DNA of 11,181 nucleotides, from assembly GCA_043816785.1 (NCBI GenBank), contig JBDRHP010000073.1:1-11181 (forward strand), in the 5' to 3' direction. The position numbers and the translations under genes were made by a program. A model generated the notes under the pieces. That model worked only from the letters and a program-made list of their open reading frames with translations, ran no database searches and was not told where the DNA came from. Of this stretch, positions 720-9,715 are shown piece after piece. Source of the stretch: Candidatus Margulisiibacteriota bacterium (GTDB lineage: Bacteria; Margulisbacteria; WOR-1; O2-12-FULL-45-9). How positions within the stretch are numbered: the first letter of the stretch is position 1; each line of letters opens with the position of its first letter.

Positions 720-725
720 TTGCTT

Positions 726-757
726 ATGGAGCCGAGACGTTTAGTCTCAGGCTCCAT
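726..757 (-). repeat. 32-nt bulged hairpin element, copy B (inverted relative to copy A)
   Basis: Reverse complement reads ATGGAGCC-T-GAGAC-TAAAC-GTCTC-GGCTCCAT: same architecture as copy A and 25/32 identical. Confidence 0.85.
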
Positions 758-765
758 GAAAAATT

Positions 766-2277
766 ATGAGTTACATATCTTTATATCGAAAATGGCGGTC
801 ACAGGACTTTGACGAGATAATCGGCCAACCGGCGATCGTCCAGACTTTAAAAAACGCGATCAAAAATGATCGCTTGGCCCATGCTTATCTATTTTCCGGT
901 CCCCGGGGCACGGGCAAAACCTCATTGGCCCGCATACTGGCCAAAGCCCTGAATTGTGAAAACGGGCCAACGCCAAAACCTTGCGGCAGCTGCCAAAATT
1001 GTCTCAAGATCAAAGACGGCCATTCAGTTAATGTGATCGAGATCGATGCTGCCTCAAACCGCGGGATCGACGAGATCCGCGAACTCCGCGAAAGGATCCG
1101 CTACGCTCCGGTTGAGGGCCGATATAAGGTCTATATTATTGATGAAGTCCATATGCTTACTCCGGAAGCCTTTAATGCGCTGCTTAAAACTTTGGAAGAG
1201 CCGCCAGCCCACACGATTTTTGTTCTGGCGACCACCGAGCTGCAAAAAGTGCCTTTAACCATTGTTTCCCGCTGTCAACGCCTGGATTTTGGCAGGATAA
1301 AACTGGCGGAGATCGAGCAGCATTTAAGAAATGTCGCCAAAGCTGAGGGGTTTGAGATCGATGATAAGGCGGTTAACCTGATCGCGCGGGTCGGTGAAGG
1401 CTCAATGCGTGACGCTATTTCCCTTTTGGACCAGGTGGTTTCTTTCTCCGGGCAAAAGATCACCTATGACAGCGTAGTCCTGCTGCTGGGAACGGCTGAT
1501 GAAGAGCTGCTTTTTGCTTTTGGTGAGGCTTTGGCTGCTGCTGATCCTGCTAAAGTTTTGCAGCTGGTAACGGATGGCCTGGCGGAGGGCCGTTCGACCC
1601 AGCAAGTTACTCGCGACCTGGTTTCCCATTTTAGGAACCTGCTGCATCTTAAGGTTGGCTCCAGTGAAGCGCTTGAGCTGACCAGTGATTATTTAGAAAA
1701 ATTAAAACAACAAGCAGAAAGTTTTTCCCTGAAGAAAATAAAAGAGGTGATTAGCGCTCTTTCCCGGGCTGAGCTGGATATGAAGTGGCATCCGCATGCG
1801 AGACTTGTATTAGAAGTAACTTTGCTTGAATTGCTTGAGCAACCGGCTGAAGTTATTGCAGTTGTGGAACCCGAGAATAAACTTCCCTGCCTGCCGGCAG
1901 GCACGGTCGGTTCCACAAAGGTAAAAACTGAGGAGCCGAGACGCCTGCCTGACGGCCAGCTCGCTAAGATCAAGACCAACTGGCAGGAAATCCTTGAGGA
2001 GGTTAAGAAGAAAAGTATTTTTGGTTATGTTTCTTTGCATGAGGGCGAGCCGCTGGAGATCAATAACAGAGGAAAACTGGTCATTGCTTTCCGGCGTGGT
2101 TATGCTTTTCATAAAGAACGTTTGGAAGATGCCAAAAACAAGCTGGCGGTAGAAGAGGCTGTGGGCGTAATTATTGGCGAGAGGGTCCCCATTGAGTGTG
2201 TAGTGAGCGAAGGCAAAAAGGAATCAGCGATTTCTGCCAATGCCGTAGCGGAGTTTTTTGAAGGGAGAGTGCTTTAG
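766..2277 (+). CDS. dnaX: DNA polymerase III subunit gamma/tau
   Basis: LYRKWRSQDF N-terminus, Walker A GPRGTGKT, zinc module LNC..PCGSCQNC, EIDAASNRG, Walker B IIDEVHML, NALLKTLEEPP, SRC motif. Followed by ybaB-recR. Confidence 0.98.
   Translation: MSYISLYRKWRSQDFDEIIGQPAIVQTLKNAIKNDRLAHAYLFSGPRGTGKTSLARILAKALNCENGPTPKPCGSCQNCLKIKDGHSVNVIEIDAASNRGIDEIRELRERIRYAPVEGRYKVYIIDEVHMLTPEAFNALLKTLEEPPAHTIFVLATTELQKVPLTIVSRCQRLDFGRIKLAEIEQHLRNVAKAEGFEIDDKAVNLIARVGEGSMRDAISLLDQVVSFSGQKITYDSVVLLLGTADEELLFAFGEALAAADPAKVLQLVTDGLAEGRSTQQVTRDLVSHFRNLLHLKVGSSEALELTSDYLEKLKQQAESFSLKKIKEVISALSRAELDMKWHPHARLVLEVTLLELLEQPAEVIAVVEPENKLPCLPAGTVGSTKVKTEEPRRLPDGQLAKIKTNWQEILEEVKKKSIFGYVSLHEGEPLEINNRGKLVIAFRRGYAFHKERLEDAKNKLAVEEAVGVIIGERVPIECVVSEGKKESAISANAVAEFFEGRVL
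1862..1918 (+). repeat. 32-nt hairpin element, copy C, inside dnaX and interrupted by a 21-nt palindrome
   Basis: GTGGAACC-C-GAGAA-TAAAC-TTC[1886-1906]TC-GGTTCCAC. The outer stem extends to 10 bp (TTGTGGAACC 1862-1871 / GGTTCCACAA 1909-1918). Confidence 0.85.
1886..1906. repeat. 21-nt GC-rich palindromic insert CCTGCCTGCCGGCAGGCACGG
   Basis: Contains the perfect 16-nt palindrome TGCCTGCCGGCAGGCA (1888-1903). Removing the insert restores the host hairpin and keeps the dnaX frame. Confidence 0.85.
1932..1960. repeat. Partial copy D of the hairpin element plus a partial second CCTGCCTG palindrome
   Basis: GGAGCCGAGACG (1932-1943) is identical to 728-739. It is followed by CCTGCCTGACGGC (1944-1956), 12/13 identical to 1886-1898. 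Confidence 0.7.
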
Positions 2278-2589
2278 ATGATATTCGGTAACATGGGAGA
2301 GATGATGAAAATGGCCCGGGATATGCAGGGGCAGATGAAGAAGATAAAAGAGGATCTGGCCAAGGAGATTTTTGAGGGGAGTGCGCCTGGTGTAGTGGTC
2401 AAGATCAGCGGGGATATGGAGCTTAAAGAGCTTTCGATCGAGCCGCAACTGGTTAATCCCAATGATGTTGCCAAGTTAGAGAAACAGGTGGGAGAGGCGG
2501 CTAAAAAGGCCTTGAAATTAGCCAAAGACGGGGCGGCTAAGAAATTGAAAGGGTTAACCGGAGGGCTTGGGCTGCCGGGAATGTTTTAA
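2278..2589 (+). CDS. ybaB: YbaB/EbfC family nucleoid-associated protein
   Basis: About 100 aa, GNMGEMMKMARDMQGQM start, EGSAPGVVVKISG, C-terminal LTGGLGLPGMF. Canonical position between dnaX and recR. Confidence 0.95.
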   Translation: MIFGNMGEMMKMARDMQGQMKKIKEDLAKEIFEGSAPGVVVKISGDMELKELSIEPQLVNPNDVAKLEKQVGEAAKKALKLAKDGAAKKLKGLTGGLGLPGMF

Positions 2590-2590
2590 T

Positions 2591-2693
2591 CCTCACCCCC
2601 GCTGGCGTTTATGACTCCTCCCCCTCTCCATCTTCGATGGAGAAGGGGAAACCCGAATGGCGAGCTTGTCGAGCCATGAGGGAGGGGGTGAGG
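2591..2693. repeat. Multi-branched palindromic intergenic element (CCTCACCCCC...GGGGGTGAGG type)
   Basis: Outer 10-bp inverted repeat 2591-2600/2684-2693. Inner hairpin CCCCTCTCCATC-TTC-GATGGAGA-A-GGGG (2621-2648). Third arm CCC-GA-[21 nt]-GA-GGG (2652-2682). Confidence 0.8.
2657..2677 (+). repeat. 21-nt hairpin ATGGC-GAGCTTGTCGA-GCCAT nested in the larger element
   Basis: 5-bp terminal stem; its GAGC-Yn-GTCGA core is shared with 6013-6034. Confidence 0.7.
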
Positions 2694-2702
2694 TTATAAA
2701 TT

Positions 2703-8860: not shown

Positions 8861-9715
8861 ATGCAAGTATTAACCGCCATGAGAAAAAGTGCAATTATAA
8901 ACGGCAACGTGGCAAGCTATAAGATAGTGCGTCGCTTGGATCAAAAAAATAAACTGCCCGGGCCCCGCGTTTTTTTAGTTGAGGAGTTAGATTCGAAAAC
9001 ATTAAGAGTCCTAAAAAGCATCAACGCTGACTCCCCTTTTAACGATTCTCTGGTACAAGAATTATCTGTATACATGTCTTTGGCAAGGAGTGTTTGGCCA
9101 GTGCCTAAATTCTTGGATGAAGGAGTCTTCGCTTTAAATGGAAATTTGTGGAATTTTGCTGTTCGAGAATATTTCCAGGGCAGCTCATTAGATAAGATTG
9201 AAACATTACAATTTAGCGCTTTTCTTTGGTCGCTGTACGTTTGTTTGCAATCCTTGAAGGAATATGAAGCCGGCGGATTTTTGCATGCAGATATACAACC
9301 TAGCAATATCTTAATTAACGCTTCGAGTCGCCGGGCTTTCTGTGCTTTAATTGATCCGGCGGGTTTTAAGCTTTCCCCAGAAGGAAGGGTTGCTAGCTAT
9401 GGCTCAGTTGAAGGAGCCGGACGTCCTGAATATGTGCCGCCGGAAGAAAGAACTTTGCTTTTTCCTGGCAGGACCAGAGATGTTTATGGGCTGGGGAGAA
9501 CTTATCTGGAACTCTTAAGCGGAATTCCGGCAATCAGGTCAACTGATCAAATGTTAAGAGGAATACAGGCAATGTGCCAAAGAGCCTCAGGTGATGATGT
9601 TCGGTCCCGCTATCAGTCAATCACTGAAATGAGTGAAGCTTTTGATGTATTAAGAACTAGTGAGTCGGGGCAATTGAAAGATTTTGAAATGCGGCTGCCC
9701 AACAATATTCTTTAG
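8861..9715 (+). CDS. Degenerate Hanks-type Ser/Thr protein kinase-like protein
   Basis: RVLK (beta3 Lys), QE (alphaC Glu), REYFQGSSL hinge, HADIQPSNILI catalytic loop, LIDPA in place of DFG, GRPEYVPPE, DVYGLG, late RY. Start could also be ATG 8879. Confidence 0.8.
   Translation: MQVLTAMRKSAIINGNVASYKIVRRLDQKNKLPGPRVFLVEELDSKTLRVLKSINADSPFNDSLVQELSVYMSLARSVWPVPKFLDEGVFALNGNLWNFAVREYFQGSSLDKIETLQFSAFLWSLYVCLQSLKEYEAGGFLHADIQPSNILINASSRRAFCALIDPAGFKLSPEGRVASYGSVEGAGRPEYVPPEERTLLFPGRTRDVYGLGRTYLELLSGIPAIRSTDQMLRGIQAMCQRASGDDVRSRYQSITEMSEAFDVLRTSESGQLKDFEMRLPNNIL

Follow-up and report, generated by a model that had tools for sequence, protein, structure and literature searches.

The linker of the DNA polymerase III subunit gamma/tau (DnaX) of this Candidatus Margulisiibacteriota bacterium contains the eroded, in-frame remnant of a hairpin doublet of one repeat family (family B), within which a 21-nt palindrome of a second family (family A) is nested. 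Together, these two nested kinds of small repeated hairpins encode approximately 28 amino acids of the predicted linker. An IS200-type transposase, the gene of which has these hairpins on its flanks, is the likely agent of their spread, and within DnaX they likely act as neutral filler, a combined reading to which we assign a probability of roughly 0.82. The window analysed here is an 11,181-nt stretch of contig JBDRHP010000073.1 (assembly GCA_043816785.1) that samples the gene order alr, dnaX, ybaB, recR from a repeat-rich 1.53 Mb genome (G000; 106 contigs) carrying several hairpin families; the names of homologues indicate Saganbacteria/WOR-1. A first-pass annotation, made from the sequence alone, had attributed DnaX residues 366-399 to translated palindromic repeats. 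This peptide occurs as quoted, is encoded at 1861-1962, and lies within a frame that stays open through the repeats. Its derivation from repeated, mobile-type palindromes is supported by our analysis for all but the last four residues, which we assign to the host because D396 and G397 recur across homologues (78 and 51 of 119, respectively). The accompanying proposal that repeats had supplied sequence to DnaX stands with respect to mobile-type palindromes, but two families rather than one are involved, and they were swapped in without adding length. Coordinates are given below.

Features of the window and of the wider genome discussed in the text (contigs of G000 are denoted C)
Feature	Position	Strand	Remarks
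dnaX, DNA polymerase III subunit gamma/tau	766-2277	+	single open frame, 503 aa
First family B hairpin, in frame	1862-1918	+	core 1870-1885 plus 1907-1910
Nested 21-nt variant of family A palindrome	1886-1906	+	in 3' arm of B hairpin; exactly 7 codons
Surviving arm of second, inverted B hairpin	1932-1943	-	remainder lost in this genome
Likely remnant of second family A insertion	1944-1956	+	inferred from sequence match
Intact intergenic B doublet, alr-dnaX	hairpins 686-721 and 724-759		reference for the coding copy
Family D compound palindrome, ybaB-recR intergenic	2584-2700		unrelated to the dnaX repeats; context
HUH-Y1 transposase gene, 164 aa	G000:C10:13933-14427		PF01797, E 2e-19
Ends of multi-copy element (six left, six right)	G000 C8, C41, C42, C58, C60 (both), C61, C62, C79, C85, C87, C88		

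The first B hairpin in dnaX retains a perfect 8-bp outer stem, flanked by imperfect arms that reach out to 1851 and 1929; the span of its perfect stem is counted with the 21-nt A palindrome excluded, and the folding energy of 1862-1920 is -25.9 kcal/mol. Positions 1864-1916 had been described as a forward copy of the intergenic hairpin, which holds insofar as this is a B hairpin but overlooked its interruption by the family A palindrome. Once those 21 nt are removed, the core differs by a single mismatch from three intact genomic cores. Nesting of A within B is found elsewhere in the genome (contigs C104, C64, C72 and C60), at the same B site on C104 and at about the same site on C64. The forward-then-inverted order of the doublet is that of the doublet upstream of the gene, as had been noted, and characterizes 26 of 27 close B pairs genome-wide. 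Core-to-core, the gap measures 25 nt in the dnaX doublet versus 18 nt in the upstream doublet, within a genomic range of 11-50 nt.

The second hairpin is represented by a 12-mer (1932-1943) that is, as annotated, identical to 728-739. It occurs 11 times in the genome, and the dnaX occurrence is the only one of these not to extend into a full hairpin. Directly downstream, 12 of the 13 bases at 1944-1956 match the start of A, all 13 match the copy at G000:C72:5324, and the segment begins at the point where family C enters approximately 18 other B copies, whilst its last six bases double as the host codons D396-G397. From these matches, we infer that a second A insertion followed by a deletion likely took place here. 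No match was found within 600-2800 to any Rfam family at E values up to 1, and no NCBIfam model matched the linker piece.

A chance resemblance, or a repeat misassembled into dnaX, is highly improbable as an explanation of this structure. The assembly is repeat-rich and divided among 106 contigs, and the evidence is at contig level, with sequencing run X1 possibly being the source sample itself. However, a separately assembled Logan contig from X1 bridges the site, spanning 975-2008 gap-free, and misassembly was rejected on this basis; it also carries strain differences, with five other letters, four of which (at 1404, 1410, 1422 and 1587) are common to run X2. Furthermore, a second protein record has an identical linker, the closest homologue (P0002) holds a related peptide, and the probability that the 12-mer alone would lie by chance no more than 60 nt from the first hairpin is approximately 5e-6. 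Runs X2-X4 yielded no contig bridging the linker, and the short joint present in X2 at 1839-1887 is probably derived from a different organism. RNA-run contigs cover dnaX at 1130-1294 and 1979-2171, either side of the linker, and none extends over it.

Among homologues, the region is a variable linker between the collar and C-terminal domains, as the first-pass annotation had stated. Across a 121-row alignment of residues 358-406, linker length ranged from 22 to 84 aa with a median of 49 aa, which is also the length in the window, and short linkers without repeats occur. An indel covering 1862-1960 had been anticipated, yet no clean one was apparent; since the linker is not longer than the median, the repeats are concluded to have replaced linker sequence. 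The peptide is not conserved among orthologues, identity to the window being 0.13 over residues 366-395 compared to 0.73 and 0.66 in the flanking domains (119 homologues). The dnaX repeat is an in-frame copy in a conserved gene that is missing from most orthologues. Two dnaX matches in other genomes contain one internal stop (G005, locus L002; G015, locus L013), and a further genome (G014) has two dnaX-like loci.

An earlier state of the insertion appears to be preserved in P0002 (MFH1683299.1; 83% overall identity), whose peptide has both ends in common with the window and is exactly 7 residues shorter within the first hairpin. Against the translation of an intact second hairpin, P0002 matches at 7 of 9 residues, whereas none of the other 118 linkers matches at more than 5; P0002 would thus retain this hairpin almost complete. 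These matches suggest that the doublet predates the divergence of P0002 from the window, with invasion by A and erosion following on the window's side. In the proposed history, a B doublet would have entered the linker, or taken the place of some of it, in an ancestor common with P0002; the 21-nt A would later have invaded the first hairpin, lengthening it by 7 codons and leaving no target duplication; and the second A insertion, with its associated deletion, would have taken away most of the second hairpin. The order of these events is read from peptides because P0002 is known as a protein only and its first hairpin has diverged. On a tree of 114 rows, computed with the linker removed and with the window's duplicate and 6 partial proteins excluded, the sister of P0002 is P0027 (support 98), the unrelated linker of which requires either later replacement in P0027 or linker exchange. 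An insertion-free allele of the dnaX site was not found, the nearest genomes being 77% identical and none of the same genus; the genome of P0002 was absent among 31 genomes of the order, and a metagenome scan returned nothing closer than 67% over this region.

Repeat invasion of this linker extends to other homologues. A-type peptides were recognized by eye in 11 of the 119 other linkers, at differing positions and often beside sisters that have none, with independence across the tree likewise judged by eye. Family A was confirmed as DNA in the dnaX linker at two loci (L008 and L015), and the linker at a third (L029) contains yet another palindrome. Several other recurring linker types appear in separate clades, which suggests that further repeat families have replaced the linker.

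Within the genome, family B comprises 100-109 intact copies of a 20-nt core with a bulged stem; of 100 intact cores, 54 are intergenic, 13 lie at ORF edges and 33 fall inside crude ORFs. Of 65 genomes examined in the class, 46 contain the family. Each copy has an outer stem sequence of its own, yet the two arms still pair, over at least 6 bp in 61% of 109 copies versus 5% of mismatched pairs, and the profile of these 109 copies showed no fixed GTAG foot, with positions outside the paired stem varying. Peptides derived from B occur in at least 14 other Pfam-confirmed genes, often between domains, including polA, mutS, ileS, leuS, metH, gltB, tsaD and lnt. As so many housekeeping genes here hold such peptides, dnaX is nothing special in this respect. 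Family C, a 42-nt double hairpin with approximately 18 sites, enters the B loop at one point (for example at C10:13966 and C88:5480), and a copy in polA shows an additional level of nesting.

Family A, a perfect palindrome of 20 nt, has approximately 28-32 exact copies in the genome (reversed control, 0), plus 21-nt variants. In one of the copies that lie upstream of a small GIY-YIG gene, within a duplicated piece of tRNA-Leu, exactly 20 nt have been inserted and no target duplication accompanies them. Another genome, G036 (loci L231-L250), contains 33 exact copies of the 21-nt form; 15 of the 21 examined lie within B, at one site and in one orientation, so that B is copied together with its cargo, as a unit. 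The 21-nt form was also observed at five loci on viral contigs, one of which (L203) has two inverted copies 52 nt apart.

The 21-nt form of A is enriched within genes. Scoring one site per genome, with the frame open for at least 60 codons on both sides, 21-nt copies lay in long frames at 19 of 27 sites compared to 3 of 23 for 20-nt copies (Fisher p 5e-5); one locus was dropped from this count for lack of room, and the window's own genome and G036 were left out. Within the window's genome, the corresponding figures were 7 of 11 and 5 of 30 (p 0.007); since the compared genomes are kin, the p values overstate the significance. Host genes in the window's genome included mutS, glmS, rarA, lnt and two metallo-hydrolases. 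A 20-nt insertion would shift the frame, and such copies would mostly be filtered out of genes by selection. In G036, merely 4 of the 21 examined 21-nt copies were in long frames, indicating that the 21-nt form spreads outside genes too. The alternative that 21-nt forms arise only through post-insertion repair is weakened by this proportion and by the 33 exact copies in that genome.

The candidate mobilizer of B is the HUH-Y1 transposase encoded on contig C10. It scored 69 bits against the NCBIfam IS200 model (cut-off 55) and missed the cut-off of the RAYT model (48 bits against 80), and it displays HVH and Y---Q motifs and a short core. A forward B copy lies upstream of the gene and inverted copies downstream, with the C-terminus of the protein reading through B. 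Amongst relatives of this transposase, 19 of 32 loci had B on one side or more, 12 of them on both; after removal of its own locus and two duplicates, these figures were 16 and 9 of 29. As a control, B was found at 2 of 61 dnaX loci, the window being one. No tnpB was seen beside the C10 gene and no near-identical transposase copies were present in the genome, which holds one intact copy and one broken copy (L259, G000:C60:7517-7909; one internal stop, 44% identity). A degenerate A is nested in the upstream B hairpin of the broken copy. Transposase genes of this kind were found in 29 of the 65 genomes of the class.

From these associations, an IS200-type tyrosine transposase likely spread the B hairpins. 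It is improbable that B doublets were instead spread by host processes, such as template switching at stalled forks or gene conversion, with the hairpin-flanked transposase a mere target. The variable yet complementary outer stems are hard to square simply with a fixed-end transposon, B is also present at both ends of another multi-copy element, and three B-rich genomes among the 65 (G019, G057 and G058) had no transposase match. Against host processes, B flanking is specific to the closer transposase relatives, mostly in the forward-upstream, inverted-downstream arrangement, and the transposase gene is found in many different neighbourhoods (the largest neighbour-sharing group comprised 5 of 30 loci). 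Spread by host processes would alter the mobilizer but not the origin of the peptide. The other multi-copy element is unassembled, has terminal inverted repeats with a B hairpin immediately internal to both ends, and inserts into family D palindromes; the start of its gene presumably resembles an IS1182-type transposase.

Transposase-mediated spread of B invites comparison with described repeat systems. The GTAG/CGTC REPs, as presented in the account by Di Nocera et al. 2013 (PMC3733652), are likewise short inverted-dimer palindromes that are mostly intergenic with some in frame, but B lacks a fixed GTAG or CGTC foot and two families are nested here. In that account, intragenic REP dimers encode 20-30 aa in frame, are thought to be neutral, and are frequent in genes for DNA synthesis and repair (polA, dnaE, uvrA); neither dnaX nor tau turned up in four of its supplements. 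The TIRtrons of the same source (PMC3733652) similarly have self-complementary inverted repeats that flank a gene and also form dimers elsewhere, although their GGGGWSAS TIR motif is absent from the B profile. Rickettsia palindromic elements, cited in the first-pass annotation as precedent, are also described as palindromes translated in frame within unrelated housekeeping genes (PMC10969869); these elements are approximately 150 bp with a conserved peptide, whereas the units here are 20-30 nt, are read in several frames and, for B, have a candidate transposase.

In its workings, the system resembles the REPIN-RAYT, or REPtron, pair (10.1101/2021.07.10.451892, PMC8266576), portrayed there as an inverted palindrome pair with a variable spacer in tens to hundreds of copies, with palindromes flanking an HUH-Y1 transposase gene. 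REPINs are reported in that source to lie almost exclusively outside genes, unlike many copies of B; moreover, the C10 enzyme is of IS200 type and is not fixed at one locus. We do not file B as REPIN-RAYT because the tag and enzyme class fail, despite these similarities. The HVH and Y---Q motifs and short core are those given for the IS200-type TnpAY1 subclass 1.1 (Quentin et al. 2018, PMC6006769), from which the C10 gene departs in its missing tnpB neighbour and near-identical copies. For family A, there is a partial likeness to the Ssn GIY-YIG nucleases with SRM repeats as characterized by Chenal et al. 2025 (PMC11893778), in that A precedes 2 of the 6 small GIY-YIG genes by approximately 70-85 nt, but A was not seen to flank the gene at both ends in the two loci read. 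Four of the six adjoin tRNA genes (L253:1405-1815, L254, L255 and L256:1378-1815), and both loci read have a duplicated 5' tRNA piece upstream of the nuclease gene, with A in or beside it; given this position, the A copies may be passengers.

The predicted structural context of the repeats in DnaX is that of a linker. Domain III comprises residues 233-358 and the C-terminal domain residues 399-489, with the linker between them. The AlphaFold model (mean pLDDT 87; 69 sequences) falls below 50 exclusively at residues 361-391 and places the start of a helix at residue 398, which predicts a disordered linker. Because of this predicted disorder and the open frame, the hairpins likely persist as neutral filler, with the translated peptide predicted to act merely as a flexible tether from the collar to the C-terminal domain.

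That the linker was instead co-opted, the peptide or mRNA hairpin tuning DnaX through, for example, pausing or frameshifting to a short gamma form, is a poor candidate. Other bacteria end the gamma form just after domain III, and the repeat site here directly follows that domain; the first hairpin is still stable at the folding energy given above, and both peptide ends are common to P0002, at 83% overall identity. Nevertheless, the dnaX linker of the window contains no in-frame slippery heptamer or long A/T run, such signals appeared in 4 of 52 linkers without a common position, and the second hairpin has decayed in this genome. Low identity, variable length and short repeat-free forms among homologues weigh further against co-option, and neutrality of the insertion in dnaX is most likely.

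Translated intragenic repeats are already known; the dnaX case adds a well-documented instance to this established phenomenon, with no new function of DnaX implied. A search covering few subscription journals found no publication on families A or B or on repeats in the dnaX linker. The case is a clean one in which repeats supply the linker of an essential replication protein, and it combines three features rare in published cases: a candidate mobilizing enzyme, a relative with an earlier state and a countable frame filter. It offers an enzyme and a substrate whose pairing can be tested, and it calls for caution when genes are annotated or phylogenies built in this class. Less ordinary are the frame filter, the composite that carries cargo, and flanks that vary yet stay complementary. 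More speculatively, and in our view doubtfully, these may belong to a layered Saganbacteria system in which the IS200-type transposase copies untagged doublets with nested cargo and builds or selects complementary flanks, a self-propagating 21-nt A is pre-adapted to proteins, and the linker, rewritten faster than the enzyme core, records repeat activity across the class.

Two further observations concern neighbouring sequence. At G000:C102:20969-21346 (L032), a 122-aa gene has family D palindromes on both flanks, and we take its product to resemble a DUF559-type endonuclease. Within the window, an ORF of 284 aa (8861-9715) between an R3H-AAA gene and nadB has a weak protein-kinase match that falls under the cut-off (E 8e-6).
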